Shown: one piece after another, positions 11,046 to 60,600 of the stretch
Layout: the number at the start of each line of letters is the position of its first letter
Position numbering within the stretch: the first letter of the stretch is position 1
Origin: a virus
Lineage: Duplodnaviria; Heunggongvirae; Uroviricota; Caudoviricetes
Direction: 5' to 3' (one strand)
DNA length: 64,000 nt
IMG/VR virus record: IMGVR_UViG_3300012667_000768
Program-made: the position numbers and the translations under genes
Notes under the pieces: model-generated
Seen by the model: the letters and a program-made list of their open reading frames with translations, nothing else
What the model was told of the DNA's origin: nothing
Databases searched by the model: none

Positions 11046-11573
11046 CAGATACTTATCCTTATCTGGCGAAGTGAAGTAGGCTGTTTCTTCCTCACGAGTC
11101 AATTTTCTATGTTGGGGAATACTCTTTTTATCCTTCCAACATACATAAGTGGTCCCGTCGAAAGGTATAGTCCAGGGTTCGATACTCATCTTATCTCCTT
11201 ATTGAAATGGCCCGTTCTGTTTCTAGGTGGAACCATACCCAATGTCTTAGTGCTTACGCAGCAAGAGCAAATGCAACGTCGTTATCGTTTGCAGTTATGT
11301 TTTGTGGCACTTTGCCAGTCAATAGTCTCGGCGTTCCTATTACTCGAAAATCGATCCTAGTTCGCCCCCATCATAGATACACTGGTGTGCTACTACGCTA
11401 AAGGATTGACCGTTACCCGATGGGAACTCGAACATTGTCCAACGGCAGTAATCCACTCCTTAGACGATGGCTGCTTCTAGGCCCACGTCCCAATGTATCT
11501 ATGGTGGAGGCGGCGGGTGCTGCCCCCGCGTCTTTCCGCTTTTATTGTCGGCTGTCAGCGACTATAGTCATCA

Positions 11574-11602
11574 GATATAACAAAAGTTACTCTGAAAGTC
11601 AA
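11574..11602 (-). promoter_or_regulatory. promoter TTGACT-N17-TATATC
   Basis: fires into the 480-bp non-coding stretch 11100-11570. Confidence 0.4.
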
Positions 11603-11605
11603 GAA

Positions 11606-12280
11606 TTATTTCTTTATTGCTATGAAATTTGCTTGGTAGTGTCTAGGCGTCATAATATTTAGTCTATTTCTAGCTTCGATTAAGTTTTCACTGAGCAGTA
11701 GATCGTAGTCCTCTGCTAGTAGAAATGACGCGTTCTTGCCCATACTATACGCTTCTATAAGAAGTTTTATATAGCTATACTTTATTCCCTTATGTAAAAG
11801 AGCTATTATTGATATTAATAACCACCCAGGAGCTTTTGTCTGAGTATAAGAGAACATGGCTAAGCACATTTCGCCAATATAAGAGGTATCGTATCCAGTA
11901 AGAGTATGCCATACGTCATGAACATCAGAATATCTTCTAGCAAGCCAGCTATAAGGATGCCTGGCTTCTATCCATTCTTTTTTGCCTTTGCGATTTAATA
12001 CTGGTAAGTAATCTTCTATATTTGGATACTGAAGGTAAGTTTCCTTTCCTACAGAACCCTCTGGCCTAGAAGATAGGTTTCTGAAATAGGTAGATACTTC
12101 TTCCGAATTGTATACTACCTCTCCGCCCTTTTTACTAGATATTAGCTTATTAAGCATACTCTTCAAAGAGTAACGATTAGTGACATATATAAGATATACA
12201 CTAAACTTAGGGTTCTCTGGATTTTTATAAAGCTTTTTACTTATTTTATACGCCGATTTAAGATCTAGTTTTGGCAGCAT
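11606..12280 (-). CDS. hypothetical protein with COQ4-like HDxxH-x11-E metal-binding motif
   Basis: 224 aa; VHDVWHTLTGYDTSYIGE matches the HDxxH-(x)11-E pattern of the COQ4 family. Confidence 0.45.
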   Translation of the reverse strand: MLPKLDLKSAYKISKKLYKNPENPKFSVYLIYVTNRYSLKSMLNKLISSKKGGEVVYNSEEVSTYFRNLSSRPEGSVGKETYLQYPNIEDYLPVLNRKGKKEWIEARHPYSWLARRYSDVHDVWHTLTGYDTSYIGEMCLAMFSYTQTKAPGWLLISIIALLHKGIKYSYIKLLIEAYSMGKNASFLLAEDYDLLLSENLIEARNRLNIMTPRHYQANFIAIKK

Positions 12281-20629: not shown

Positions 20630-20703
20630 TGGAGCGGAATGCGGGAATCGAACCCGCCTCGTCAGCTTGGAAGGCTGTCATAATACCACTATACCAATCC
20701 CGC
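20630..20703 (-). tRNA. tRNA (anticodon probably UCC, Gly), CCA encoded
   Basis: reverse complement GCGGGATTGGTATAGTGGTATTATGACAGCCTTCCAAGCTGACGAGGCGGGTTCGATTCCCGCATTCCGCTCCA; 7-bp acceptor stem (one GU); T-arm GGTTCGATTCC. Confidence 0.65.
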
Positions 20704-20704
20704 G

Positions 20705-20776
20705 TACCAATGGCTAGACTCGAACTAGCGACATAAGGAATATGAGTCCTCTGTTCTACCACTGAACTACACTGGT
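20705..20776 (-). tRNA. tRNA-Met (CAU)
   Basis: reverse complement ACCAGTGTAGTTCAGTGGTAGAACAGAGGACTCATATTCCTTATGTCGCTAGTTCGAGTCTAGCCATTGGTA; anticodon loop CTCATAT; 72 nt. Confidence 0.7.
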
Positions 20777-20855
20777 GTATAAAAAGGGCCGTCCACAGGA
20801 GGTTGCAAGACACCTGCCAAACCTGTGCGTTACTGTGTTTCCAACGGAAGTTAAT

Positions 20856-20932
20856 TGGTTGCGGGGATCGGATTCGAACCGATGACCTTTAGGTTATGAG
20901 CCTAACGAGCTACCTGACTGCTCCACTCCGCG
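20856..20932 (-). tRNA. initiator-like tRNA-fMet (CAU)
   Basis: reverse complement CGCGGAGTGGAGCAGTCAGGTAGCTCGTTAGGCTCATAACCTAAAGGTCATCGGTTCGAATCCGATCCCCGCAACCA; close to E. coli tRNA-fMet, including the C1-A72 mismatch and the three G-C pairs in the anticodon stem. Confidence 0.75.
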
Positions 20933-21399: not shown

Positions 21400-21472
21400 T
21401 ATACGTTATAGGATTTGAACCTATGACTCTCTAATTAATGGTTAGATGCTCTACCAACTGAGCTAAACGTAA
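21400..21472 (-). tRNA. tRNA-like gene with non-canonical anticodon loop (CCAUUAA)
   Basis: reverse complement TTACGTTTAGCTCAGTTGGTAGAGCATCTAACCATTAATTAGAGAGTCATAGGTTCAAATCCTATAACGTATA; good D- and T-arms; 1-72 mismatch; position 33 is C. Confidence 0.5.
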
Positions 21473-21933
21473 AGTTGCTAACCTACCTCGAAGTGCCACT
21501 TCCGCTGCTTCATATCCTTTTGAGATACAAAATACAACACTCCGACTGTCTTTCTCCTTGCGAGATACTAAACCATGCTTCTGGACTTTCACCCATTGCA
21601 TTGCCACTTAGCCCTTCCACGCGAATGGTCGAACACAGTGACTACCAGTTAATTGTACGCACCTCATGTTTTGGCTTGTTATGGAACAGGACGCCAATCC
21701 CTTTATCCCTCACCGACCGGCTCTGGGCATATATCCTTTCGGACCATAACAACAATCCATGCGATGATTGCCTAGCTAAATAGACAATGACACGCTTTCG
21801 GCTATAAACCGAGTCGTATCCAACGCTGGCTTGCATAGTAGGACTCTTGCGAGCGGAGGTATGTAGGAATTCCTCCGTTGGCCACATTGCTGTGGTTATC
21901 CTTTATAGAGCGCTATGCCGCTCTTGAATATCT

Positions 21934-24228: not shown

Positions 24229-24339
24229 CATCTATTTTGAGTCTTTCCAAAAAGCGATGTATGCCAGAAGTGCTACAATAATCCATTCAGCCATGTTGCC
24301 TCCAAAAAGAAATGCCGCTGAATTAACAGCGGCACTCCA

Positions 24340-25765: not shown

Positions 25766-26090
25766 AGGCAGTACCCATGAGCCACTCGACCTTTTCTAGC
25801 AGTGACCATGAATCATAGGTCTCTGGCTTGAACTCAGTAGAAGTGAAGGGATTAATATCTTCTTGTAGATTTTCATCTACAATATACTTACCTTCATGAT
25901 TAATATACTCTAGCTTAGTCATCTTGCAGCTAGAACAGACGCACTGATCTAGTATCCAGAAGATCTGTTCGATATGGTTGGATTTAAACTCCCAACCGGG
26001 CATAGACATTTTATCAAGTACTAGCATTTTTATGTTCCTCACAAAGTACACGAATCCAGCCGCCACTTGTGCTGGTTCCAGGTGCTCCAC
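25716..26090 (-). CDS. Cys-rich hypothetical protein
   Basis: 124 aa with CxxC pairs. Confidence 0.5.
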   Translation of the reverse strand: MEHLEPAQVAAGFVYFVRNIKMLVLDKMSMPGWEFKSNHIEQIFWILDQCVCSSCKMTKLEYINHEGKYIVDENLQEDINPFTSTEFKPETYDSWSLLEKVEWLMGTACGCEFDFYDDEESNNG

Positions 26091-26511
26091 ATTGTTCGCA
26101 AGTGCGACCGCTCATGCTTTCAGCCATTGAAACAATACCATCAATATAAGCGTCGCCGCCTCCGAAATAGAATCGAAGTGTGCCAAACTTTTCTTTGACT
26201 TGAATAGCTACTACTTGTTCGACAGGTTCTGGAATATCTCGTGGTTCACGAGACTTCCAGCTATCCCAGTTCTCAAATCCATTCGCTAGTGCTTCTTCTA
26301 GTTCAGCATTGAACTTATGAGCACTCTTGATTTGCTCAAGACGCCAGTCGATATGACCCTGAATGTTTGAGCACATAGCTTCTAGAATATTGTACCAGCC
26401 GTCACCGACGCACATACCCCAGACCATACAAGTCTTGGACATATCTCCGTTACGATCCCGAAAGATCAGCGGATAGTCTGCACACAACTTTTCATCAAGT
26501 TCTTTACGCAT
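26014..26511 (-). CDS. Cys-rich hypothetical protein
   Basis: 165 aa; CEQCGAP..C..H cluster at the C-terminus. Confidence 0.5.
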   Translation of the reverse strand: MRKELDEKLCADYPLIFRDRNGDMSKTCMVWGMCVGDGWYNILEAMCSNIQGHIDWRLEQIKSAHKFNAELEEALANGFENWDSWKSREPRDIPEPVEQVVAIQVKEKFGTLRFYFGGGDAYIDGIVSMAESMSGRTCEQCGAPGTSTSGGWIRVLCEEHKNAST

Positions 26512-26770
26512 CTAATTTAGTCCACATATGAGAGTTGCGAGGAATGTTAGGAATAATAGTATAGTTATCCCCATCTTTAAATACTAGCCTATCATGTACG
26601 CCAGGCTTGAATGCACTAGCTGGAGCCTGCTCGCCATAATACCTAAAGATAAGATCTGATGGCTGTGGAGAGTTAGCCAGTAGAGTTTCTACTAGTTCTG
26701 CGTTGAAAGAGCGACGAGGCTTATGCTCTCCGCTCTTATTTGTCCACTCAGGAATAGTGATTCTGTACAC
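26504..26770 (-). CDS. hypothetical protein
   Basis: 88-aa ORF. Confidence 0.5.
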   Translation of the reverse strand: MYRITIPEWTNKSGEHKPRRSFNAELVETLLANSPQPSDLIFRYYGEQAPASAFKPGVHDRLVFKDGDNYTIIPNIPRNSHMWTKLDA

Positions 26771-27215
26771 GTTCTTTAATCTCCAAATAAAACTGATGAT
26801 ACTTGGCGATACGCTGAATATCCTTATCAGTTACGCCCTTTAGACGACGAATATCAGAGTTGTGACGAAGATCACACAGCTTGACTCGCATTGCATCTTC
26901 ATTCGCAAACACTTGACGCTTATATTCGTCATAGGTCTGACCACGCTGCTTCGTAAGCGAGTATATACCTGTAATTACTCTTTCACTAAAGCCAAGTTCT
27001 TTTAGCTGGTGATAAGTTACGTCTGTGTCTTCTACTAGGTCGTGACCTAGCGCAATGCACATCAGTTCTTCGTCGTCGCTTTTTAGATAGTGCATGACTT
27101 TAAGGCAGTGCATGATATAAGGCTTTCCAGCCTTATCCGTCTGCCCATCATGAGCATTGGTTGCTAGATGCAACATTTTGCTTAACATCATCAATTTCCT
27201 TTCTAATAGCTTCAT
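26748..27215 (-). CDS. HD-domain (p)ppGpp hydrolase-like protein (small alarmone hydrolase)
   Basis: AHDGQTDKAGKPYIMHCLKV...GHDLVEDT matches the RelA/SpoT-type HD hydrolase motifs; true start may be an internal Met. Confidence 0.6.
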   Translation of the reverse strand: MKLLERKLMMLSKMLHLATNAHDGQTDKAGKPYIMHCLKVMHYLKSDDEELMCIALGHDLVEDTDVTYHQLKELGFSERVITGIYSLTKQRGQTYDEYKRQVFANEDAMRVKLCDLRHNSDIRRLKGVTDKDIQRIAKYHQFYLEIKERVQNHYS

Positions 27216-27661
27216 GGAGCATCTGAAATACGTGCTTGTTAAAGCACTGGTTTAGGTGAAGCATAGCCTCTCCGAAAGTCAGTTCGGTTTTATCCCGCAT
27301 ATCCATTATACCATCTCCTCAACGATTCCTAGAATTTCTGCGAACACAAGTAGAAGACCAGCGGCAACGAAGTTGCCAGCGATAAGTGACCCACCAGCTA
27401 CAATGCGAAGAACGCTCTTAATTAGAGACACATAGAAGTGGCCCTTGCTAGTATCTTTAGGTTGAATGTCCATTAGTTAAACTCCTTGCTAAGATGCTGC
27501 ATTACACCTAACCAGAACTTCTTAAAGTCCGGATTCTTGGCACGACGATAGGCTTGGTAGGCATTATACCAACGATACTCTGGTGATTGAATAAACATTG
27601 TCTTTTCTCCTTATGGCCCATGATACAAAAAATGGGGCCTGTTGTCAAGCCCCATTTTCGA

Positions 27662-28942: not shown

Positions 28943-29497
28943 TTAAACTGACTTTAAGAATGGTACTAGCCAATGCTTGTGTTTACCCCAAAAGCGTCTA
29001 GCCTTCAAGCCCTCTAGCTGAGCCATGTCTCTGCCTTCTGCTGATAGAAACCACTCTTTAGTATTGTAGGAACATCCAAACTGAACGTGACCATCATCAT
29101 AGACGGTGATTGGGTAATCTAGACCATCTAGTTGCACTGGTGGACGATTTATAATTCCTTTAGCCCACTCTACTTGCTGAATGTTTGCATCTTTAAGGTC
29201 AACATTAGAAAGCATACTGTCCTTAAAAGATGTGTGAATAAGCTGCGACTTAGCAAAGCTAGAGCAGAATACATATGCGTTTCTAATAGACGTTTGAATG
29301 AACGAACACTCAATAAACTGAGCACCACATAGGTAGCCCTGATCCATTAAAGCAGCATCAAAGTTGCATCTAGTAAAGATTGCACCTAGATACTCGGCTT
29401 TCTCTAGTGATGCCGACGTGAAGTCACAATCTGTGTACTCTGCGTGAGTGAAGTCAAAGCGATGAAGATCGCGACCATAGAATGATTCATTTTTCAT
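28943..29497 (-). CDS. pentapeptide-repeat protein
   Basis: tandem A(D/N)LxX-type pentapeptide repeats; start MKNESFYG lies 6 nt after a TATAAT box. Confidence 0.6.
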   Translation of the reverse strand: MKNESFYGRDLHRFDFTHAEYTDCDFTSASLEKAEYLGAIFTRCNFDAALMDQGYLCGAQFIECSFIQTSIRNAYVFCSSFAKSQLIHTSFKDSMLSNVDLKDANIQQVEWAKGIINRPPVQLDGLDYPITVYDDGHVQFGCSYNTKEWFLSAEGRDMAQLEGLKARRFWGKHKHWLVPFLKSV

Positions 29498-29503
29498 AAG
29501 CCC

Positions 29504-29532
29504 ATTATATATAAAAACTAACCTATTGTCAA
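29504..29532 (-). promoter_or_regulatory. promoter TTGACA-N17-TATAAT, leaderless (ATG 6 nt after -10)
   Basis: minus strand reads cTTGACAataggttagtttttataTATAATgggcttATG. Confidence 0.55.
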
Positions 29533-29564
29533 GCTTTAAAACAGGACTCCCTCGCAAATAAAAC

Positions 29565-41705: not shown

Positions 41706-43103
41706 ATGAAAAAAATTGCGATTAGTCTTATGGTAACGGCGGCTCTCCTGCCCACAATGCAGGTAGCCGCCCAAACCTATGACTCTACTACTTTAGTAGA
41801 TAGTAACAATACTTCTACTAGTACTGTTACATCAACAAATACAAATAACAATACTAATGAAAATACCAATGTCAATACTTCCACAAATACAAACTACAAT
41901 GTAAATAGTGGTACTACAACAAGTAATACTAATAACGTAAATACTTCGACAAATTCCAATACAAATACTAGTACAAACACTAATTACAATTATGGTGAGA
42001 CTACTAATAACTCAGTAATGTCTGGAAGTGTGACGTATAATAACAATAATACGACTACTGGTACAAATACTAATTATAACTACGGAGAGACAACTAGTAA
42101 CTCGGTAATGTCAGGAAGTGTTACGTATAACAATAATAACGCTTCAACTTCTTCAAATACAAACAATAACACCAACTATAACTACGGAGAGACAACTAGT
42201 AACTCGGTAATGTCAGGAAGTGTTACGTATAACAATAATAACGCCTCTACCAGTACAAACACAAATAACAATACAAACTATAGTTATGGAGAAGTTACTA
42301 ATAATAACGTATTATCTGGAAGTGTAAATTATAATAACAACAATACTACAAACGCTACAAATTATAATTATGGCGAAACTACTGTAAACAGTAATTTAAG
42401 TGGTACAGTTAATTATAATAATAATAATGTAAACACAAATACAAATAATACTACAAGTAATAATACTAATTATAACTACGGGGAAACGACCACTAATAAC
42501 AAGTTAAGTGGTAATGTAACGTATAATAACAATAATAATGTGAATTCAACCAGTAATAACACAAATACTAATATTAGTACAGGAAGTATGGTAACTAATA
42601 ATACCAATAACTCAACTAGTAATAATACAAACACAAATGTTAATACTGGTGACATGACTAATAGAAATATTAATACTTCTAATAGTACATCAAATGTAGC
42701 CACAGATAATAAAAATACTAATATAAATAAGAACGAGTCAACTATGAAAGTAGTGCAACCACCTCCAACAGCTATCGCACCATCTATGATGAGTGGTGGT
42801 AACGGTGATCTATGTACTACTGGCGTATCAGGAGCAGCTCAAACACAAGTTCTTGGTATTTCAATGGGGGCTACACGTACAGATACTAATTGTGAAAGAC
42901 TAAAGCTTTCTAAGACTTTATTTGATATGGGCATGAAAGTAGCAGCTGTCGCTACGCTATGTCAAGATCGTAGAGTATTTGATGCTATGATGGCCGCAGG
43001 CACACCATGTCCTTACGAAGGTAAGATTGGTGAAGCTGCTAAGACTCTATGGGAAGAAAACCCTGAGAACAAGCCAGGCGAAAAGAAGAAGAAAAAGAAG
43101 TGA
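41706..43103 (+). CDS. secreted Asn/Thr-rich repeat protein
   Basis: signal peptide; about 7 copies of NYNYGETTSNSVMSGSVTYNNNN; Cys-containing C-terminal domain; poly-Lys tail. Confidence 0.55.
   Translation: MKKIAISLMVTAALLPTMQVAAQTYDSTTLVDSNNTSTSTVTSTNTNNNTNENTNVNTSTNTNYNVNSGTTTSNTNNVNTSTNSNTNTSTNTNYNYGETTNNSVMSGSVTYNNNNTTTGTNTNYNYGETTSNSVMSGSVTYNNNNASTSSNTNNNTNYNYGETTSNSVMSGSVTYNNNNASTSTNTNNNTNYSYGEVTNNNVLSGSVNYNNNNTTNATNYNYGETTVNSNLSGTVNYNNNNVNTNTNNTTSNNTNYNYGETTTNNKLSGNVTYNNNNNVNSTSNNTNTNISTGSMVTNNTNNSTSNNTNTNVNTGDMTNRNINTSNSTSNVATDNKNTNINKNESTMKVVQPPPTAIAPSMMSGGNGDLCTTGVSGAAQTQVLGISMGATRTDTNCERLKLSKTLFDMGMKVAAVATLCQDRRVFDAMMAAGTPCPYEGKIGEAAKTLWEENPENKPGEKKKKKK
42076..42244 (+). repeat. 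perfect direct repeat of about 68 bp (period about 101 bp) inside the Asn-rich protein gene
   Basis: ATAACTACGGAGAGACAACTAGTAACTCGGTAATGTCAGGAAGTGTTACGTATAACAATAATAACGC occurs at 42076 and 42177. Confidence 0.7.
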
Positions 43104-45100
43104 AAAGGCTTTTAGCCTTAATTCTAGTTTTACAGTCTAGCACTTCTTTGGCTCAGACAGCTACGGAGCCAGAGGCTACGACTGTTAGGATGGGCGACGA
43201 TGGATATGTCGAAGTCCCTCTAGAGTTTGAGTTCCCTTTATTTCAGGAACTATTCTCCACTTCTTGGATGTATGACAACGGTATAATAAGTTTTATACAA
43301 CCAGGACAACCTGGTAGTATATCTCCTTACCAATGGAGTGCATTGCCGATAGATCAGGTTGGTGCTAATTATTTTATCGCTTCTTTATGGGCAGATATAG
43401 CGCCAAATTCTTCTACTAAGTATACGTATAGCGGGGACGCTACACAAATGAAATATACCTGGACTAATATAGCAGAGTTCTATAGTGCAGGGAGTTCCTC
43501 ACCTAGGTATAGTACTTTTAGTACAACTATAAAGCCAGATGGTTCAATAGGTACTAGTTTCGCTTCTGTCAATCTACAGACTTCTAATGTATCTTCTGGT
43601 GTAGTAGGAAATAAGTCGTCCGGAGAGTTTCAGTCATTTTATTATAGCTCTTATGGCAGCCCTGTTAATATAAGCGACTGGACGTACGTAGGTACTTATG
43701 TGCCTCCTCCGCCTCCACCACCACCACCGCCAGAGCCGCCTCCATTACCACCAGATCCTATACCGGTACAAGAGTTTGTTGAAGAACCAACCGTGTATGA
43801 GCCTGTAGCTCCGCAGGAATCTGCTCCACCAGCACCTGTAGCTGAGCCGCCTCCTACTCAGACAGTAGCAGCAGCAGCAGCAGAAACACCTACTCAGCAA
43901 GTAGTGCAGCAATTAATGGCACCTACGCCAGAAACTAGCATTTCTCAAACTACTCAAGCACTACCCTCAGTTTCCGCACAAGCATCCTCTGATAAGAAAA
44001 TTGTATCAGTAGATGCTCAATCAATCGCTAAAAATAATCAAAGAAACTTAGCGGCATTAACGGATTCTGTAGTGTCGACTTCTATTCAGGGTTCCATGGA
44101 ATCTGGAACAAAGTCAGCCGAGTCTAGTATGTCTTCTAGTTCTACTTCAGTATCAGGTACTAGTATCAAGGTAGGCGAACAAACTATAGCAAACGCTGTA
44201 GATAGTGTAAATCAAACTCAAAATCAGACACAAAGCATCTCTTCAGCTACGTCAGATTCTAGTAAGTCTACTTCAGCTAGCGCGACTACTTCTTCTACTC
44301 AACAAAGTAGAAATCAAACTTCGAAAGTATCTGAGGGAGGCTCAGAGCAGTCGTCTAGTTCTATGACACAGAATAGTGAGAATCAAACTCAGTCAACTTC
44401 AAAAGTATATTCGGAAGTAGCACTTGTTTCTACAAACACTACGGCTACTCAAGATCTTTCGAGTCAAATGCAGTCCACAGGACAACAGGAGACTTATCAA
44501 GCTACAGCTGTAGATCAGTATGCTTCCTTGATACAGCCACCTGTGTTCACACAGGAGCAGCAAGAGGATACTCAAGTAGTTGAACCTACTATTCAAAGTC
44601 TAGAAGATACTTTAGCTATGTTTAAACCTTATGCAGGCGCGTCCGATGTTTCATCGGAGACAGCACAAGATTTTATCAATAGTCAAATAGACGAACAGAC
44701 TTCAATTGCTAATGTAAGCACTGAAGTGGCTAATATATCGGTTACAGATGATATAAATCCTACCAGTATAAGAAGCTTATCAAATGCAGTACTAGCAATG
44801 AGAGCTATCGAGGAAGAGGAACAAAAGAAAGAAGTCGCTGATAAAGTTCCAGATAATGACCCTGCATTAGCAGAATTAGCAGAATCAGGAGCTAAACTAG
44901 AGGCCTTACAAGTAGTTCCAGTTGGATACTTTAACTATCTGAATTTAGCGTATAAAGATGTGGCTTTCTATAAAGATAGAAAAATTTACAGAAAACAAAA
45001 GGTTGTAGACAACCTAAGAATTCTTAGAGCAATCAATGCAAGAGACAATAAGACGTTCTCTAGTATGATAAATTCTCAATATAATTTAGAGGATTTCTAA
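43100..45100 (+). CDS. secreted protein with poly-Pro linker and Ser/Thr-rich region
   Basis: signal peptide; PPPPPPPPPPEPPPLPP; long Ser/Thr/Gln-rich stretch. Confidence 0.55.
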   Translation: MKRLLALILVLQSSTSLAQTATEPEATTVRMGDDGYVEVPLEFEFPLFQELFSTSWMYDNGIISFIQPGQPGSISPYQWSALPIDQVGANYFIASLWADIAPNSSTKYTYSGDATQMKYTWTNIAEFYSAGSSSPRYSTFSTTIKPDGSIGTSFASVNLQTSNVSSGVVGNKSSGEFQSFYYSSYGSPVNISDWTYVGTYVPPPPPPPPPPEPPPLPPDPIPVQEFVEEPTVYEPVAPQESAPPAPVAEPPPTQTVAAAAAETPTQQVVQQLMAPTPETSISQTTQALPSVSAQASSDKKIVSVDAQSIAKNNQRNLAALTDSVVSTSIQGSMESGTKSAESSMSSSSTSVSGTSIKVGEQTIANAVDSVNQTQNQTQSISSATSDSSKSTSASATTSSTQQSRNQTSKVSEGGSEQSSSSMTQNSENQTQSTSKVYSEVALVSTNTTATQDLSSQMQSTGQQETYQATAVDQYASLIQPPVFTQEQQEDTQVVEPTIQSLEDTLAMFKPYAGASDVSSETAQDFINSQIDEQTSIANVSTEVANISVTDDINPTSIRSLSNAVLAMRAIEEEEQKKEVADKVPDNDPALAELAESGAKLEALQVVPVGYFNYLNLAYKDVAFYKDRKIYRKQKVVDNLRILRAINARDNKTFSSMINSQYNLEDF

Positions 45101-45641: not shown

Positions 45642-46928
45642 ATGTTAGTAAGTAGAGCAGATATTCCCACAGACGTAATCGTCCAGTACCCTCAGGCATT
45701 TATGAAGGTACCTATCGGTAATTATCTAAAAGAATTAGACGTAGACCCATTGCCATCACAGATAGCACTAGTAAATGGTATAAATAATCCAAAGTACCGC
45801 TTTGGATGTGCTGCTCTATCTCGACGTCAAGGTAAAACTTATATAGCAAATATTGTGGGCCAGGTAGTAGCTTTAGTACCTGGCTCACATGTGCTTATCA
45901 TGGCTCCAAACTATTCTCTATCTCAGATTTCTTTTGATCTACAAAGAAACCTAATAAAGAAGTTCGGACTAGAGGTAACTAAAGATAATGCTAAAGACAA
46001 AGTTATTGAGCTATCTAACGGCTCCACTGTCAGAATCGGTTCAGTCAATCAAGTTGACAGTTGCGTTGGTCGTTCATACGATCTTATCATTTTTGACGAA
46101 GCCGCGCTAACAGATGGGATGGAAGCTTTCAATGTAGCACTTCGTCCTACACTTGATAAGCCTAATTCAAAGGCGCTATTTATTTCGACTCCTCGTGGTA
46201 AAAACAATTGGTTCTCAACTCTCTTCGATAGAGGATTTAGAGACGATTTCCCCGAGTGGTTCTCTGTAAAAGCGACTTGGAAAGATAATCCAAGAATGAC
46301 AGAGAGCGACGTTGCCGAAGCTCGTCGCTCCATGAGCGAAGCTGAATTCCGTCAGGAATATGAAGCCGACTTCTCAATCTTCGAAGGTAAGATTTGGCAA
46401 GTACAATCAGAGTGTATACGTCCATTTGAACTTAATTTTAAGAAATGCGATGTGTTCGCAGGGCTCGACCTTGGATTTAGAGATCCTACTGCGATGTGTG
46501 TAGTAGCCTTCTCATGGGAAGATGAAAACTTCTACCTATTAGATGAGTATCTAAATAATGAAGAAGTTACTTCCGGACATGCGCGAGAGATAAAGAAGCT
46601 AATAGATAAGTGGAACATCGACTATATCTATATCGACTCTGCCAACCAGCAGCAGAGATATGACTTCGCACAAGAATACGATATACCTACTACTAATGCT
46701 AAGAAATCAGTATTAGACGGAATAGGCTATATTGCCTCATTGGCAGATAATAACAAAATTATTATCGACCCAGAATTACATCACGTGCTTCACGCATTCG
46801 ACCAATATCAGTGGGATCCGAATGGAGCACTACAAAGGGAAAAGCCCTTACATAATGATGCCTCGCACATGGCCGACGCTCTTAGGTACGCGCTTTATAG
46901 TTATAAAACTAACGTAGGAGGTTTTTAA
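45642..46928 (+). CDS. terL: terminase large subunit
   Basis: Walker A SRRQGKTY, Walker B YDLIIFDEA; C-terminal nuclease-like acidic residues. Confidence 0.75.
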   Translation: MLVSRADIPTDVIVQYPQAFMKVPIGNYLKELDVDPLPSQIALVNGINNPKYRFGCAALSRRQGKTYIANIVGQVVALVPGSHVLIMAPNYSLSQISFDLQRNLIKKFGLEVTKDNAKDKVIELSNGSTVRIGSVNQVDSCVGRSYDLIIFDEAALTDGMEAFNVALRPTLDKPNSKALFISTPRGKNNWFSTLFDRGFRDDFPEWFSVKATWKDNPRMTESDVAEARRSMSEAEFRQEYEADFSIFEGKIWQVQSECIRPFELNFKKCDVFAGLDLGFRDPTAMCVVAFSWEDENFYLLDEYLNNEEVTSGHAREIKKLIDKWNIDYIYIDSANQQQRYDFAQEYDIPTTNAKKSVLDGIGYIASLADNNKIIIDPELHHVLHAFDQYQWDPNGALQREKPLHNDASHMADALRYALYSYKTNVGGF

Positions 46929-49227: not shown

Positions 49228-49501
49228 ACAAATTTTAATCGAAACATTAAAAGATTACTTTACCGCAAAAGGTAAGTTTCTTACAATGGACGAGTACAAA
49301 GAACAAGCAGACGCTCCTTACCGCTTTCAGATTGTTAAAAGAACAGTAGGAAGTTGGAGCCGTCTAAAAGGTTTAATAGGTGATATTTCAGCTCCAGTAG
49401 CTGCAGTAGCTCCAAAGCAACCAGCACCTAAACCAGTAGCTGCTAAACCAGCTCCTGCTGCTCCAGAAGCAGAAGCAGGAGCGACAGAAGCTAATGGCTA
49501 A
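49220..49501 (+). CDS. hypothetical protein (Ala/Pro-rich C-terminus)
   Basis: start MSRQILIE overlaps the portal stop. Confidence 0.4.
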   Translation: MSRQILIETLKDYFTAKGKFLTMDEYKEQADAPYRFQIVKRTVGSWSRLKGLIGDISAPVAAVAPKQPAPKPVAAKPAPAAPEAEAGATEANG

Positions 49502-52280
49502 AGTAGGTGGAGAGGAAATAAGCCTCACCCCTACAGACAGCATGGCTAGTGAAGCACAAAGAGGGCTTGACTGGAGAGAAGATGGATTTGACGGAGGTAC
49601 GCCAATTGGTTTAGCTAGAGCTAGACAATTAGTGAATAGACAAGAGCTATCACCAAGTACCGTACGAAGAATGCACAGCTTCTTCAGCAGACATGAGGTG
49701 GATAAACAAGGCGAAGGATTTAGTCCTGGTGAGCCTGGTTATCCTTCAAATGGCAGAGTAGCCTGGGCTTTATGGGGTGGTGACGCCGGTCAGACATGGG
49801 CAAGAGCAAAATCAGCAACTCTAGATAGACTAGAAGGTAAATCTATAGACTATACTAAAGAGTTTTCAGAAGATTTTGGCTCTTCATGTCCAGCAGTTAC
49901 ACATGACGAATTACTCAACGTACAGAATCATTTAGTAACAATACAAGAAGCAAATTTAGGACCAGCAGATCCTACAGCTCCAGAGAACGAGTTCTGGGCC
50001 AATATGGCCGAGACATGGTCTATGTCAGAGCAGGAAGCAAGAGCTCGTCAGTGTCAAAACTGCGAATACTATAAGAATAGTCCTAAAATAATTGACTGCT
50101 TAAATTCTTCTGAATTTAAAGCATCAATGCTTCCAGTAGAGCCTAAGTGGGCAGATACAGATCCAGTAAGTGGATACTGTACTAAGTTTGACATAACTTG
50201 CTCTGCTAGACGTACTTGCTCAGAATGGGATAAACAAAAGTTTATGCCAGAAGATGAAGATGAGGAAGGTCAAGACGAGTCTTCAATGATGGAGCTAAGT
50301 GCTAGAGGAAAAGCTATGAACAAGATTTTTAAGTTAGATTCTTCTATTAAATCTATTAAAGAAGATGAAGACGAACTAAAAATTACAGGTTACGCAAGTA
50401 CAAATGCTATGGATAGATCATGCGATCGCATACTTCCAACAGCTTGGACTAAAGGCGGACTAAAGAATTTCAAAACAAATCCTATACTATTATTTAATCA
50501 TAACTATGACAAGCCAATAGGCAAAGTAATAGCAATGGGTACGGACAGTAAAGGGCTACAGATTAAAGGAGTCATCAGTAAAAGCGCTGGCGACGTCTAT
50601 AATCTTGTGAAGGAAGGTGTTTTATCAACTTTCTCAGTCGGATTTTTAATCAAAGACGCAGAATACGATAAACAGGTCGATGGGCTAGTTGTTAAAGACG
50701 CCGAACTCTTAGAGGTATCAGTAGTATCTGTACCTTGCAACCAAGATGCTACATTCTCGGTAGCTAAGTCATTCGATAATCAGGATGATTATCTAAAATT
50801 TAAACAACAATTTTTTGACAATGCTCTAGGTGGTCAGCCTCTCGCTGAAGAAACCAGAGGCTCATCAGAGGACGCTGCAAAAGAAAAGGCGTCAAGGAAA
50901 TTAACAATGGACGAACAAAACGATATGATTCAGAAGGCCGTAGCTGCTGCTCTAGAAGCCTCAGATAAGGCTCGCGCCGAAAAGGCTGCTGCTGAGCAAG
51001 CAGAAAAGAAGGCTGCTGAAGAAATGGAAGCTAAGGTTGCTACTGCTACTGCAAAGGTACTAGCTTCTTCAGAAGAAAAACTTTATGCTGAACTAGAAAA
51101 GCGCTTCCAGGATAAGGAAGTAAACCTAGAAAAGGCTCTAGAAGGTCTACGTGGCGAACTAGCTGAAAAGTCAGTTGAACTACAGGCTATCAGCCAGTCA
51201 AAGAGAGTATTCTCAGACCGTAACGATAACGGAAGCTGGAAGAAGACTTTCGCTCCTGATATGGAAAATGCATACCTACTAGGACGCATCACAAAGAAGG
51301 GATATGACACAAACTTTGGTCGCTCACTTCTAGAAAAGGTAAACGCTCACTCATCAGTTCAGGTCTCATCAGCAGACTTCGAACAGGAAGTTTCATCAAA
51401 CATCGAACGCGACATTCAGAACGAACTAATCCTCGCTCCAATGTTCCGTGAAATCGCGATGAACACAGCTTCAATGATCCTACCAATCATGCCAGATAGC
51501 GGCTACGCCGAAATCACAGGTAATGCTGGATCAACAGACGCAACAAATCCAAATGGTACACTAGAATCACGCGGCGGAACAAACCGTGGCGGTATCGCTC
51601 TAAGCGAAGTCGAACTACGTACTGTAAAGATGGTTGCAAAGAGCTATCTAGGCAACGAAACAGAAGAAGATGCAATTCTTCCTATTCTTCCACTACTACG
51701 TGAAGCAATGATCCGCTCACACGCACGTGGCGTAGAAAATATGATCCTACTTGGTGGACACGCAGACGGCGCTTACTCAAGCATCACAGCTGCTTCAGGT
51801 CTTCTAAAGTATGCATCAAGCAGCTCACGTGATGTAGCTGCTGCCGGTACTGCAACAGCTCTAACAGCTGCTGCGCTACTTGGTCTACGTAAGCAGATGG
51901 GCAAGTATGGCCTACGTGCTAATGATGTTGCTTACATCGTTTCACAACAGTGCTACTTTGAACTACTAGAAGATGCTGAGTTCCAGGACTTCAACCTAGT
52001 TAACACCCAAGCAACAAAGCTAACTGGTGAAGTTGGTCAGGTATTCGGTTCAGCAGTAATGGTATGTGACGAGTTCCCAACAGCAGCCGCCGGTAAGTAT
52101 CACGCTCTAGCTGTCAACAAGCGCAACTTCGTAATCCCACGTCAACGTGGTGTTACTGTAGAAAGCGACTACCTAGTTGAAGATCAGCACAGAGTGCTTG
52201 TAACTTCACAGCGTCTTGGCTTCAAGGAAATCATCCCAGGTGCTAAGTCTGTAATCGGTCTAAAGTACGCTGCTTCATAA
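49494..52280 (+). CDS. prohead protease, scaffold-like coiled coil and HK97-fold major capsid fusion protein, with an extra Cys-rich N-terminal domain
   Basis: 928 aa; protease-like block KITGYASTNAMDRSCDRILP...LLFNHNYDKPIG; coiled-coil, Ala/Glu/Lys-rich middle; capsid-like C-terminus; strong terminator follows. Confidence 0.6.
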   Translation: MAKVGGEEISLTPTDSMASEAQRGLDWREDGFDGGTPIGLARARQLVNRQELSPSTVRRMHSFFSRHEVDKQGEGFSPGEPGYPSNGRVAWALWGGDAGQTWARAKSATLDRLEGKSIDYTKEFSEDFGSSCPAVTHDELLNVQNHLVTIQEANLGPADPTAPENEFWANMAETWSMSEQEARARQCQNCEYYKNSPKIIDCLNSSEFKASMLPVEPKWADTDPVSGYCTKFDITCSARRTCSEWDKQKFMPEDEDEEGQDESSMMELSARGKAMNKIFKLDSSIKSIKEDEDELKITGYASTNAMDRSCDRILPTAWTKGGLKNFKTNPILLFNHNYDKPIGKVIAMGTDSKGLQIKGVISKSAGDVYNLVKEGVLSTFSVGFLIKDAEYDKQVDGLVVKDAELLEVSVVSVPCNQDATFSVAKSFDNQDDYLKFKQQFFDNALGGQPLAEETRGSSEDAAKEKASRKLTMDEQNDMIQKAVAAALEASDKARAEKAAAEQAEKKAAEEMEAKVATATAKVLASSEEKLYAELEKRFQDKEVNLEKALEGLRGELAEKSVELQAISQSKRVFSDRNDNGSWKKTFAPDMENAYLLGRITKKGYDTNFGRSLLEKVNAHSSVQVSSADFEQEVSSNIERDIQNELILAPMFREIAMNTASMILPIMPDSGYAEITGNAGSTDATNPNGTLESRGGTNRGGIALSEVELRTVKMVAKSYLGNETEEDAILPILPLLREAMIRSHARGVENMILLGGHADGAYSSITAASGLLKYASSSSRDVAAAGTATALTAAALLGLRKQMGKYGLRANDVAYIVSQQCYFELLEDAEFQDFNLVNTQATKLTGEVGQVFGSAVMVCDEFPTAAAGKYHALAVNKRNFVIPRQRGVTVESDYLVEDQHRVLVTSQRLGFKEIIPGAKSVIGLKYAAS

Positions 52281-57326: not shown

Positions 57327-57659
57327 ATGACGAAAGATAAGTATCTTTCGTTGTGCGAACAACTTAAGCAGGAGCCAAAAGAAGAGAAATGCCCTCCTGG
57401 CTATGAAGACTTCCCGGAGCCAGTACAACAAGCTATAGAAGTTTTTAATAAGCTGGGTGATAGAGTTTACCCAGAAATAGGATATATGGGTAAAGACTAT
57501 ACCTCTATAAACCTTCATATGGAGGTCGTAGGTGTCACCCAAAAAGACATATTTTTAGATACTCTGGTAAGGCTAGACGCCTTCATGATTAAAAAATCAG
57601 CAGAGCAGCTAAAGAAAGCACGGGATTCCGTCAAAAAGAAGGGACATGGCAACAAATAA
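57327..57659 (+). CDS. tail assembly chaperone-like protein
   Basis: 110 aa, overlaps the tape measure start. Confidence 0.4.
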   Translation: MTKDKYLSLCEQLKQEPKEEKCPPGYEDFPEPVQQAIEVFNKLGDRVYPEIGYMGKDYTSINLHMEVVGVTQKDIFLDTLVRLDAFMIKKSAEQLKKARDSVKKKGHGNK

Positions 57660-60600
57660 ATTAGTTTTTGAGGTAGTAGTATCAGATGGCGGAACAGCCA
57701 AGATAACTCAAAAAGGACTTGAGAATGTTGGTAACGCCGCCGAGAATGTAACTAGAAAGACTAAACAAGCTGGCAAGGCACAAGACGAACTCAATTATAA
57801 ATTAAACCAAGGTACTACTGGAGTCTCCAGTGCTGCTAAAAGTTTTTCAAAGCTAAATCAGGCTATTGGGAGTGGTCCCAATGGCCTTGTTGGCGCGTAT
57901 GCAACACTCGCAGCTAATGCGTTCGCAGTAAGTGCTGCTTTTAATGTATTAAAAAATGCTTCGCAAGTAGAGCAGCTTTTCGCAGGGCTAGAAGCACAGG
58001 GAGCAAGAACAGGTAGATCACTAACTGGAGTGGCTAAAGATCTGAAAGAAATTACTGGTGCGGCTATATCCTCAGCAGACGCTATGCGAGCAGTAGCTCA
58101 AGCTAGTACTTCTGGCATTAAATCAGATGATATTCGTAGATTAACAGAAGTAGCTACAGCATCTGCAAAAGCTCTCGGTAGAGATGTTCCGGATTCTCTA
58201 AATAGATTAATACTAGGTGTAACTAAAGCGGAACCAGAATTAGTAGACGAACTAGGTCTTACTATTAAACTTACTGAATCCATGGATATGTACGCTAGAC
58301 AAACAGGTAAAACAGCCTCTAGTCTAAGCAGATTAGAAAAGCAACAAGCGCTAGTTAATGCTTGGGCTACTCAAGGTGAAGCAAAGTTTGGTGCTTTATC
58401 AGAATCTGTAGATGCAAATCCATACGCTCAATTAGCTTCTGCTTTCACTGACCTTACTAATACTATTCTCAATTTTGCAAATAATGCAGGACTAGCCTCT
58501 CTGGTTTCTTTCTTAGCTAATGATAAATTTGCTCTTACAGCAGCAATACTATTTTTCGTTAGTACAATTAAAAATCAATTACTACCTGTTTTTACAGAGG
58601 CGTCAAAAGCTGCAAAAGATTTTGCTAAAGCAAGAGTATCAGGTCTTCAAGATGAAAAAAATGCACTAGATAAATCTCAAGCAAGTCTTCTAGCGCATAA
58701 AAAAGCTAATGAGGATCTGTTAAAAGGTCTTGGCGATGTAAAAACCTTACCTAAGTACTATGGTCAATGGGTACAGGCAGAAAGAGAAGGTACAGAAGCT
58801 ACTGTAGAGCATGAGAAAGCCCTTAGAAGCTTAACAGCTTCACAATCACGATTTAAGAGCCTGTCCGAAAAAGCTATTGAAGCTGGTGACACGGAAGCAG
58901 CTGATAAATATAAAGTTCTACAAGAAGAACGTGGTAGGGATATAACTAATTTACAGGGATACGCTACCAAAAAATTAGCTATAGAAACAGGAATAAAAGA
59001 ACAAGAACTAGCAAATGTTGGGCTATTAACACAGATTAAGAGAGAAGAATCACTAATAACTGCTCAGACAGCTAGAGCAGATGCGATAGAAGCTCTAGCT
59101 AAAGGCGAATTAAAAGCTTCAATTAATTCCCTGATGATTAGTACTAAAGCCTATAACCAGCAATTAATACAAGAAATAGTACTGAAAGCAGAAGTAGCTG
59201 GAGTAACAGACCTAGCAGCTGTTGCAAATAATGCACAAGCATCTTCGCTATTAAAATTAAGAGTAGCTGGATTCGCAGCAAGTACTGGTATCAAAGCAGT
59301 AGGGTCAGCTATATTGACTGCACTCCCTTGGATAGGTTTAATAACTCTAGGGTTAGATCTATTATGGGAAGCTCTCCAATTCGTTATTCCAGACTCATGG
59401 AAAAAACAGTGGGAAGCATTCGAAAAACTACAAGAGAATGTTGAGAATACCAGTAAAAAAATCGAAGCGTATAACAAGATAATAAATACTAGTGGTGATA
59501 TAACTCAAAAATCTATAGCTGCATTAACAAATAGAACTAATACTTTATCTGAAGCAATAGAAGCATATGAGGAGTACAACAAAGCCATAGTAGAGTCAGA
59601 AGCAGCTCAATTATCTGGAGAACAGCAACAACAAAGAGCTAATAAGTATCTAATAGCCAGCGTAATACCTGGATTAGATCTAGCTATGAGAGGTTGGGAT
59701 GCATGGGCTGACTCTACGAATCAAGAATTAGGGATTCCATTAAGTTCTCTTACCTATCAATTAATGCAAATTACTCCCGCATCTTCTGATGCATCAAAAA
59801 GTGCAGCTTCTATGCTAGCTGTGTTTGAAAAAACATTACCAGGAACTGTTAAGGAATTTGCGAAATTAAATAATAATTTCGAAGAGATGGATGAAAATAC
59901 TAGAAACTCTGCTATACAAGAGTTTGCTGAGAGAATTTCTCCAGTAATAGAAAGAGCAAGAGATAGTGTCGACGAATTATCTGGATCTTTAACAGAGTTA
60001 AGCAATAATTGGGCTGACTTTATAAGATCTATAACTCCCACAACTCCGTATGATAAATTAACTGGTTCTATTGATACTACTTTGAGAGCTATACAGAATT
60101 TCAAATCTAATGTAGCTAATGGAGTCATTAATCAAGAGGATGTTAATACACTACTACAGCAAGTTAATGAAGCCTCATCAGCTTTACCAGGAGCTATTCT
60201 GGGAGAGCAAGGTATAGCAATTAGAGATACAATACAAGAAACAGATAATGCTATAGTTAAATTAAGACAACAGCAAGGTGGCTTATCTTCTGATTCCGAA
60301 GCATACTTAACCATACAAAGACAAATTAGTAATCTAGAAACAGATAGACTAAGTCTAGGTAACAAATTAGGTGCCATTACTTCAGAGAATTTAACTACAT
60401 TACAGGCTCAGGTTAGTACCTCTCAGTTAGATAATATAACACTTCAAAGTAGTATAGCTCTGGCTCAAGCTAGGTTAGGGGTAATACAAAGACAAGGTAA
60501 AATATCTGTACAAGATGTTAGAAACGAAATAGCAGCAAAAAATCGAGTTGTGGACTTACAAGTACAGCAGATCCGCGCAAATAGAGTATACCTAGAAATA

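Follow-up and report, generated by a model that had tools for sequence, protein, structure and literature searches.

Does the small RelA/SpoT-type hydrolase encoded by this phage degrade (p)ppGpp and so blunt the host stringent response during infection, as the earlier note proposed, or does it act on other nucleotides and serve the phage in another way? The gene lies on the minus strand of the window (the whole stretch of 64,000 nucleotides that was analyzed), and its longest open reading frame, at 26748..27215, encodes 155 amino acids (aa), as had been read before. This frame includes a possible N-terminal extension, MKLLERKL. No Shine-Dalgarno sequence was found ahead of its annotated start, ATG 27215, and the ATG-ATG pair at 27191/27188 is preceded, 5 nt upstream of ATG 27191, by the putative Shine-Dalgarno-like motif GAAAGGAAA (27195..27203, minus strand). 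In the homologue alignment, the stretch MLSKML, which begins with Met10, forms the first residues of most homologues. The true start is probably Met9 (27191) or Met10 (27188), and the probable coding sequence (26748..27191, minus strand) would specify a protein of about 146–147 aa. A frameshifted N-terminal extension via an overlapping 52-aa ORF (27148-27306) was considered and rejected on the grounds that the frames differ; the lack of a counterpart of this ORF in the syntenic relative likewise argues against its being the N-terminus of the hydrolase. The gene has been under strong purifying selection, since its comparison with the homologue carried by a 102-kb metagenome contig of syntenic gene order gave a dN of 0.12 and a dS of about 2, hence a dN/dS ratio of about 0.06.

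The match to the hydrolase family is far above chance. The protein was matched by PHROG 990 ('metal-dependent phosphohydrolase') at 2.1e-58 and by the spoT_relA hydrolase region of NCBIfam at 1.5e-14, and 3404 homologues were found at E ≤ 1e-5 in a collection of 5.8 billion proteins. The search with the Pfam HD_4 model (PF13328), which had been suggested as a check, passed the Pfam threshold narrowly (27.9 bits vs. a gathering score of 27.2) and covered only residues 16-80. The model of the long RelA/SpoT homologues (RSH), TIGR00691, scored 53.3 bits against a cut-off of 499.2 and was covered at positions 2-124 of 687; the 155-aa protein has no synthetase, TGS or ACT domain and thus does not possess the long-RSH architecture (hydrolase, synthetase, TGS, ACT). 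The fold and superfamily had therefore been called correctly: the protein is a small alarmone hydrolase (SAH), an RSH hydrolase with a single domain, and its clade is related to the one first named, not an unrelated HD phosphohydrolase clade.

The RelA/SpoT motifs pointed out in the earlier note are all present, as AHDGQ (residues 21-25), PYIMH (32-36) and GHDLVEDT (57-64). The 'HD' in AHDGQ was rejected as the catalytic dyad, position 23 not being conserved and H58-D59 being invariant; judging by the alignments, the metal-binding HD is H58-D59 in GHD. The first metal-binding histidine, H36 of PYIMH (27108..27110, minus strand), and the catalytic HD (H58 D59) with the ED diad (E62 D63) of GHDLVEDT (27024..27047, minus strand), together with D115 and N119, varied little or not at all among the homologues, both the 54 close and the 139 distant ones, H36 being invariant. 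The metal and catalytic roles of these residues we take to be those of their counterparts in RelSeq-type HD domains. At the level of the alignment, the catalytic and metal set (H36, H58-D59, E62-D63, D115, N119) is complete.

The AF2 monomer model of the hydrolase reached a pLDDT of 90 and a pTM of 0.86. In the Foldseek comparison its best PDB match was 7SMG, the adenosine 3'-pyrophosphohydrolase 1, Aph1, of Bacteroides caccae (TM 0.84/0.92, the latter normalized to Aph1; rmsd 1.3 Å; 138 columns), followed by MESH1, PaSAH and Rel with TM values of about 0.73-0.77 and rmsd of 2.6-4 Å, and the top 47 PDB matches were all RSH hydrolase domains or SAHs. The predicted HD fold and the catalytic residues are shared with Aph1. 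The model ends in a long helix (130-154), with no helix beyond it. The Aph protomer consists of eight helices and lacks two helices of the (p)ppGpp hydrolases, alpha-0 and alpha-9, and the Aph family has been described as homotetrameric (Ahmad et al. 2023, PMC10083569). According to the model, the phage protein is built on the same compact eight-helix Aph1 architecture, without alpha-0 and alpha-9.

Sequence comparison pointed to the same relative. In the PDB sequence search 7SMG ('(p)ppApp hydrolase') was the best match, full length, with an E-value of 1.2e-28 (about 38% identity without long gaps), and the next matches, the hydrolase domains of Rel and SpoT, were at 7e-10 or weaker. The Aph family was defined with the C-terminal Aph1 segment Y90-E143, from which the HD motif is absent, as the query (PMC10083569). 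When residues 95-155 of the phage protein (61 aa, also without the HD motif) were searched against the PDB, they matched only 7SMG (E 2.2e-6, ungapped), and no (p)ppGpp hydrolase matched at E ≤ 10.

Six residues make up the Aph signature (D24, R96, D116, R119, K133 and Y134 in the Aph1 numbering; PMC10083569), and five of them are identical in the phage protein, namely D27, D121, R124, K138 and Y139. The first lies in D27-K28-A29-G30 (27126..27137, minus strand), which corresponds to D24-K25-A26-G27 of Aph1. D121 and R124 fall in DLRHNSDIRR (26844..26873, minus strand), which also carries the metal-binding D115 and the ribose-contacting N119, and in which the two residues 'SD', after the HN motif, form an insertion that the Rel enzymes lack. 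The pair K138-Y139 (26799..26804, minus strand) corresponds to K133-Y134. The single mismatch is Q101 (26913..26915, minus strand) at the position of Aph1 R96, the sole signature residue located away from the active site (PMC10083569). Among 139 domains taken from the best 150 50%-identity cluster representatives, D27 was found in 136, R124 in 137, D121 in 118 and Y139 in 135, the K138 position was occupied by K in 98 and by R in 19, and the R96 position was variable (R in 62, K in 23, Q in 11). Both the sequence and the predicted fold place the hydrolase in the Aph1-like clade of (p)ppApp hydrolases.

This placement bears directly on a SpoT-like role, in which the enzyme would lower host (p)ppGpp, blunt the stringent response and keep transcription and translation high. 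Such a role would accord with an RSH hydrolase domain bearing the full catalytic set, with the name 'guanosine-3',5'-bis(diphosphate) 3'-pyrophosphohydrolase' given to many homologues, and with a 2026 preprint according to which the stringent response stands in the way of phage infection. The database names, however, are automatic transfers and not tests, and both the sequence and the fold are much nearer to Aph1 than to any (p)ppGpp hydrolase. Moreover, guanine is contacted by R43 and T153 in TtRel (PMC10083569), and in the alignment the phage protein has D27 and R124 in place of these residues; the same two positions align to Arg and Thr, respectively, of Rel from S. aureus and B. subtilis. 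Aph1 is a monofunctional (p)ppApp hydrolase, the wild type showing essentially no hydrolysis of ppGpp, and it needed the change of both D24 and R119, as only the D24R/R119A double mutant gained this activity (PMC10083569). All 12 purified Aph homologues hydrolyzed ppApp, and two of the 12 had modest activity on ppGpp (PMC10083569). ATfaRel, classed in PbcSpo, the subfamily to which the phage enzyme is linked below, has been reported as not (p)ppApp-specific, so some ppGpp activity is possible. With D27 and R124 being Aph residues in an Aph1-like clade, the (p)ppGpp substrate of the earlier note is probably wrong, and a SpoT-like role is in our judgment unlikely.

Aph1 and the phage enzyme share five of the six specificity residues, among them the D/R pair by which ppGpp is excluded, and differ in R96 vs. 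Q101. They differ also in their setting: Aph1 is a prophage-encoded immunity enzyme, its gene standing in a MuF-toxin/Tis1 immunity cluster beside those for a (p)ppApp synthetase fused to MuF and for a Tis1-like protein (PMC10083569), whereas the window hydrolase is a stand-alone gene in a lytic-looking T5-like phage. A closer match was found in gp220 of the Salmonella phage PVP-SE1, which aligns ungapped over 143 aa at 54% identity, shares the D, N, D, R, K and Y signature residues and is likewise a stand-alone gene in a large lytic phage. PVP-SE1 is a Vequintavirinae myovirus, whereas the window phage is a T5-like siphovirus; gp220 has different neighbors, with thymidylate kinase beside it, and is longer than the window hydrolase by 17 residues at the N-terminus and by a short stretch at the C-terminus. 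As a whole-genome scan revealed gp220 to be the only homologue in PVP-SE1, we infer that it is the PVP-SE1 SAH tested by Jimmy et al. That enzyme, of the PbcSpo class, neutralized five out of five toxic small alarmone synthetases (toxSAS) in E. coli, namely CapRel, PhRel2, FaRel2, PhRel and FaRel (PMC7229694), a rescue in vivo by which its de-pyrophosphorylation of tRNA is implied. The window hydrolase would belong to the PbcSpo subfamily (Atkinson 2011; Jimmy 2020) by proxy, through its 54% identity to gp220. Taken with the Aph clade and the D27/R124 residues, the neutralization of toxSAS by the PVP-SE1 SAH means that blunting of the stringent response is not the best-supported role.

Other hydrolases of the superfamily were compared as well. 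ATfaRel (C. marina, PbcSpo), the type IV antitoxin of the FaRel toxSAS, is by its description a single-domain RSH hydrolase like the phage enzyme, and it neutralizes toxSAS (PMC7229694) in that it breaks down what they produce, the tRNA 3'-pyrophosphate included; its gene adjoins that of its toxin, whereas the window hydrolase has no toxin gene nearby. The PaSpo/PaSAH and MESH1 types (PaSpo of Salmonella phage SSU5, the P. aeruginosa SAH 6YVC, and human and Drosophila MESH1) share the superfamily and the metal site with the phage enzyme and have been shown to counter both toxSAS and (p)ppApp. They are, however, far less similar to the window hydrolase (E 6e-4 to 8e-3, TM 0.73-0.77), possess an additional C-terminal helix, form dimers and hydrolyze both ppGpp and ppApp. 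The 3'-pyrophosphate installed on tRNA by toxSAS is removed by MESH1, ATfaRel and PaSpo of phage SSU5. The long RSH enzymes (SpoT, Rel) have the HD_4 domain with the H...HD...ED...D...N set in common with the phage protein but carry the guanine-contacting Arg/Thr, where the window hydrolase has Asp/Arg and the two-residue insertion after HN.

From the sequence, the predicted model and the analogy with these systems, we consider it probable that the hydrolase is an Aph1/PbcSpo-type enzyme that detoxifies (p)ppApp and counters toxSAS, and that (p)ppGpp is not its main substrate. The H...HD...D residues would hold a divalent metal (Mg2+ or Mn2+) that activates a water molecule, which would cleave the 3'-pyrophosphate off the adenosine nucleotide, and D27, D121, R124, K138 and Y139 would shape a pocket in which adenine is accepted and guanine rejected. 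With such a pocket the preferred substrates would be ppApp and pppApp, converted to ADP and ATP. By analogy, the 3'-pyrophosphorylated A76 of tRNA is very likely also a substrate, because the group is chemically identical. Made early in infection, the protein would work catalytically as a 'universal antitoxin', undoing what toxSAS produce; these synthetases include the CapRel-, FaRel- and PhRel-type abortive-infection systems of hosts, as well as (p)ppApp toxins of competitors or resident prophages, for example Tas1 or Apk. Translation and ATP pools would thereby be kept for phage production. A counter-defense role for a phage SAH was proposed by Jimmy et al. (PMC7229694).

If this assignment is true, the phage is equipped against toxic-alarmone-synthetase immunity and (p)ppApp toxins and is not a manipulator of the stringent response, and the carriers of Aph-type hydrolases gain a lineage of uncultured, distantly T5-like phages. 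It would also amount to a correction of function, as hundreds of phage genes of the family are labelled 'metal-dependent phosphohydrolase' or ppGpp pyrophosphohydrolase and the window gene instead bears the signature residues that mark the (p)ppApp-specific Aph enzymes. No new mechanism is revealed.

A possible, though doubtful, variant is that the enzyme, with its adenine-specific pocket, serves mainly RNA repair in counter-defense, stripping the A76 3'-pyrophosphate from tRNAs modified by CapRel, FaRel2 or PhRel, with (p)ppApp hydrolysis as a secondary activity. The RNAs so repaired could include the phage's own tRNAs and tmRNA, and Aph-type hydrolases would, if the variant is true, be a widespread anti-defense enzyme among lytic phages.

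The surroundings of the gene were inspected for a partner, since the hydrolase might instead provide self-immunity, protecting the producing cell from a (p)ppApp synthetase toxin of the MuF-Apk kind that the phage itself carries or injects. Aph1, whose gene lies beside that of the MuF-fused (p)ppApp synthetase, does protect against Apk2, and homologues of the phage enzyme occur in temperate Streptococcus phages. However, a RelA_SpoT synthetase domain (Pfam, E ≤ 1e-3) was absent from all 47 scanned ORFs of 120 aa or more in the 64-kb window, among them every large unannotated protein and every virion protein, which lowers this explanation. An adjacent toxin gene of the RSH synthetase type, as expected in a type IV antitoxin or MuF-Apk context, was not found in the 64-kb window. 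The flanking genes on both sides encode small proteins without an informative family match, kept in the same order in relatives; a PHROG scan of ten neighboring small ORFs returned families of unknown function or nothing, with no functional partner, and PADLOC gave no match for the hydrolase, its neighbors and two large unannotated proteins. As MuF-domain genes lie near just 0.4% of the Aph homologues (PMC10083569), and as the phage appears lytic and T5-like, we regard self-immunity as highly improbable. Similarly improbable is another main substrate, be it NADPH for a 2'-phosphatase like MESH1, or pGpp, PAPS or a defense signaling nucleotide: RSH hydrolases are indeed promiscuous (MESH1 hydrolyzes NADPH and binds PAPS, according to PDB titles, and XccSAH hydrolyzes pppApp, (pp)pGpp and NADPH), but the nearest relatives by far are the Aph enzymes and not MESH1, the Aph signature is kept throughout the clade, and positive evidence for another substrate is absent.

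The gene belongs to a block of small genes that share its orientation and lie downstream of a T5-dNMPase-like gene, in an order syntenic with the 102-kb relative. Upstream of this block lies a sigma-70 promoter-like site (TTGACA-17-TATCAT, 11/12; 27620..27648, minus strand), a consensus match of a kind no commoner in the region than in shuffled sequences. A strong intrinsic-terminator-like hairpin of 12 pairs followed by a T run (24309..24338, minus strand), also a consensus match, may end the transcription unit of the hydrolase. The gene position and the consensus promoter matches suggest early expression, with which the synteny is consistent.

When 2 kb around the hydrolase was compared by megablast with 50,697 phage records, no match was found. 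The large terminase subunit, TerL, is about 49% identical to those of Vibrio and Pectobacterium T5-like phages, and, because there is no close sequenced relative, the phage was identified from TerL as a probable distant T5-like siphovirus. It looks lytic, and the hosts of this uncultured T5-like lineage are probably alphaproteobacterial. Homologues of the hydrolase are present in 354 phage records, and temperate Streptococcus phages are also among the carriers.

The hydrolase ORF, called with an ATG start and 155 aa at 26748..27215 on the minus strand, was found exactly where an earlier note had placed a ppGpp-hydrolase-type HD protein blunting the host stringent response, and the motifs quoted there (AHDGQ, PYIMH and GHDLVEDT) are present in the translation. 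Measured against its counterpart on a syntenic metagenome contig, the gene has a dN of 0.12 and a dS of about 2; the ratio of about 0.06 indicates that it is real and under purifying selection. No ribosome-binding site precedes the first ATG in the sequence, the ribosome-binding-site-like GAAAGGAAA (27203-27195, minus strand) lies 5 nt upstream of a double ATG (27191/27188), and MLSKML is the start of most homologues; the real protein therefore probably begins at 27191/27188 and comprises 146-147 aa. The 5' end of the hydrolase gene shares 44-68 nt with a 52-aa ORF in another frame (27148-27306, minus strand). This ORF has a strong GAGGAG ribosome-binding site and an ATG that overlaps the stop codon of the ORF before it, and no homologue of it was found in L003, a syntenic 102 kb metagenome relative that carries a hydrolase homologue.

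At the sequence level, the similarity of the window protein to known families greatly exceeds what chance would give: it matched PHROG 990 'metal-dependent phosphohydrolase' (2.1e-58) and NCBIfam spoT_relA in its N-terminal hydrolase region (1.5e-14), and 3404 homologues at E<=1e-5 were retrieved from a large protein collection. The Pfam HD_4 model, suggested in the earlier note, passed narrowly (27.9 bits vs the gathering score of 27.2) and covered residues 16-80 only. The protein falls outside the long RelA/SpoT homologues (53 bits vs a 499-bit cut-off), and its gene lies in neither a toxin-antitoxin nor a MuF-toxin context. The best match among solved structures was Aph1 of Bacteroides caccae, a (p)ppApp hydrolase (7SMG; E 1.2e-28, full length, one two-residue gap); Rel/SpoT hydrolase domains matched at 7e-10 or weaker, and the small alarmone hydrolases (SAHs) PaSAH and MESH1 at 6e-4 to 8e-3. 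An AlphaFold2 model made from 54 sequences (mean pLDDT 90, pTM 0.86) was searched against the PDB with Foldseek, which put the four 7SMG chains on top (TM 0.83-0.85 by query and 0.89-0.92 by target, rmsd 1.3-1.6 Å), followed by MESH1, PaSAH and Rel (TM 0.73-0.77, rmsd 2.6-4 Å). The (p)ppGpp-hydrolysing SAHs possess an extra C-terminal helix (Ahmad et al.), whereas the predicted model ends in a single long helix (130-154) and lacks such an element. The catalytic set H36, H58-D59, E62-D63, D115 and N119 is intact and conserved. The 'HD' of AHDGQ was rejected as the catalytic HD, which is H58-D59 in GHD.

Two features define the Aph family according to Ahmad et al. (PMC10083569): homology of the C-terminal part without the HD motif, and the residues D24, R96, D116, R119, K133 and Y134, which Aph enzymes keep and (p)ppGpp hydrolases do not. 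Searched alone, the last 61 residues of the window protein matched only Aph1 in the PDB (E 2.2e-6). At five of the six signature positions the protein has the Aph1 residue (D27, D121, R124, K138, Y139), Q101 standing at the R96 position. Of 139 domains from the 150 best representatives at 50% identity, 136 keep D27, 137 R124, 118 D121 and 135 Y139, and the R96 position varied (62 R, 23 K, 11 Q), so that the mismatch coincides with the signature position under least constraint; R96 is also the only signature residue away from the active site (PMC10083569). By every sequence and structure criterion testable, the hydrolase belongs to the Aph family.

The same residues bear on substrate. When aligned with Rel of S. 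aureus and B. subtilis, D27 is opposite Arg and R124 opposite Thr, and S120-D121 is an insertion. The positions equivalent to D27 and R124 contact guanine in T. thermophilus Rel, Aph1 gained ppGpp hydrolysis only as a D24R/R119A double mutant, and each of the 12 Aph homologues that were purified hydrolysed ppApp, two of them showing modest activity on ppGpp (PMC10083569). Reading the protein as a (p)ppGpp hydrolase that dampens the stringent response is thus contradicted by the specificity residues and is improbable, ppGpp being possible as a side activity given its hydrolysis by those two homologues and by ATfaRel. The earlier interpretation is partly supported: its RelA/SpoT HD fold was right, and its substrate and physiological reading is probably wrong.

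Translated searches revealed homologues in 354 phage records, including Vequintavirinae, Aeromonas T4-like and temperate Streptococcus phages, usually annotated as 'metal-dependent phosphohydrolase' or ppGpp pyrophosphohydrolase. Salmonella phage PVP-SE1 encodes a single homologue, gp220, which shares 54% identity over 143 ungapped residues and the same signature residues with the window protein. The PVP-SE1 SAH was classed in the PbcSpo subfamily, to which the window protein may by proxy be assigned, and neutralised each of the five toxic small alarmone synthetases (toxSAS) tested, CapRel, PhRel2, FaRel2, PhRel and FaRel; hydrolases of this sort were proposed to let phages get round abortive infection based on alarmones (Jimmy et al. 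2020, PMC7229694). The tRNA 3'-pyrophosphorylation by toxSAS is reversed by the SAHs MESH1, ATfaRel and PaSpo of phage SSU5. Since the nucleotide modified on tRNA is the terminal adenosine, it is reasonable to suppose that an adenosine-specific 3'-pyrophosphohydrolase may handle (p)ppApp and tRNA-A76-3'-PP alike. Some metagenome family members carry two to four tandem Aph-like domains per polypeptide (272-441 aa; P0125, P0137, P0143, P0148, P0172, P0186), an architecture without mention in the literature examined.

The hydrolase gene is part of a long run of small genes that share one direction, with a near-consensus sigma-70-like site upstream (27648-27620, minus strand) and a strong terminator-like hairpin downstream (24338-24309, minus strand), and from this position early expression may be supposed. 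We consider it likely that this gene encodes an Aph1/PbcSpo-type adenosine-3'-pyrophosphohydrolase which would be made early in infection and act in counter-defence, detoxifying the (p)ppApp, and probably the 3'-pyrophosphorylated tRNA, that host toxSAS defences or Tas1/Apk-type toxins generate. Self-immunity against a phage-borne (p)ppApp synthetase is very unlikely, as no RelA_SpoT synthetase domain was detected in the 47 scanned ORFs of 120 aa or more in the window, beyond which about 40 kb of the genome lies, and a PADLOC scan of the hydrolase, its neighbours and two large unannotated proteins gave zero matches. Another substrate, e.g. NADPH, is likewise very unlikely, no positive evidence favouring it. 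The finding mends an annotation and extends a known kind of protein to a phage lineage in which no gene of this sort was previously described; it reveals no new mechanism.

The TerL protein (45642-46928) is about 49% identical to those of T5-like Vibrio, Pectobacterium and Serratia phages (genomes of 112-122 kb), and no near-identical DNA was found among 50,697 phage records. Close hydrolase homologues occur on metagenome contigs of about 100-102 kb. The window and L003 share the order T5-dNMPase-like gene, pentapeptide-repeat protein, small ORFs, hydrolase and 165-aa protein. The 204-aa pentapeptide-repeat protein (28943-29557, minus strand; Pentapeptide_4, 6.9e-14), about 1.7 kb upstream of the hydrolase, keeps its position in related contigs despite only 36% identity. 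The 165-aa protein (26014-26511, minus strand), two genes downstream of the hydrolase and separated from it by an 88-aa ORF (26504-26770), has a Cys-rich C-terminal segment and is 91% identical to its L003 counterpart, the hydrolase being less conserved (80-84%); PHROG and PADLOC scans of it gave zero matches.

Other window genes encode a portal protein, tail tube protein, endolysin, tRNAs and nucleotide-metabolism functions. A 928-aa ORF (49494-52280, plus strand) has both a Peptidase_S78 prohead serine protease domain (289-429) and PHROG matches to major head proteins. The tape-measure-like protein (2076 aa; 57646-63876, plus strand) has an internal M23 peptidase domain. The 666-aa protein directly upstream of the terminase genes (43100-45100, plus strand) had zero PHROG, Pfam and PADLOC matches. 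Scanning of the ORFs between 4864 and 35042 with a minimum length of 120 aa gave ThyX, dUTPase, a dCTP-deaminase-like domain and metallophosphoesterase, together with Pfam matches unusual for a phage: S-adenosylmethionine decarboxylase (2.8e-12), Coq4 (4.8e-17), SPFH/Band_7 (6.9e-13) and Peptidase_M91 'effector protein' (7.1e-5).

A cluster at 20630-20932, on the minus strand like the hydrolase and about 6 kb downstream of it, comprises tRNA-Gly(TCC) and two tRNA-Met(CAT); the toxSAS FaRel2 picks tRNA-Gly and tRNA-Thr (PMC11559606), and any link between this choice and the phage tRNA-Gly is pure speculation. Two RNAs were found by the Rfam scan at gathering threshold. The two-piece (permuted) tmRNA (11206-11606, minus strand; tag peptide by ARAGORN ANDNDVAFALAA) is of alphaproteobacterial type (alpha_tmRNA 108 bits vs gathering score 50; tmRNA_permuted 93 bits), which suggests an alphaproteobacterial host. 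The full-length GOLLD RNA (RF02032; 21056-21545, minus strand; 201.7 bits vs gathering score 150, model positions 1-416) encloses a tRNA (21400-21473) that ARAGORN reads as tRNA-Asn with the odd anticodon ATT.
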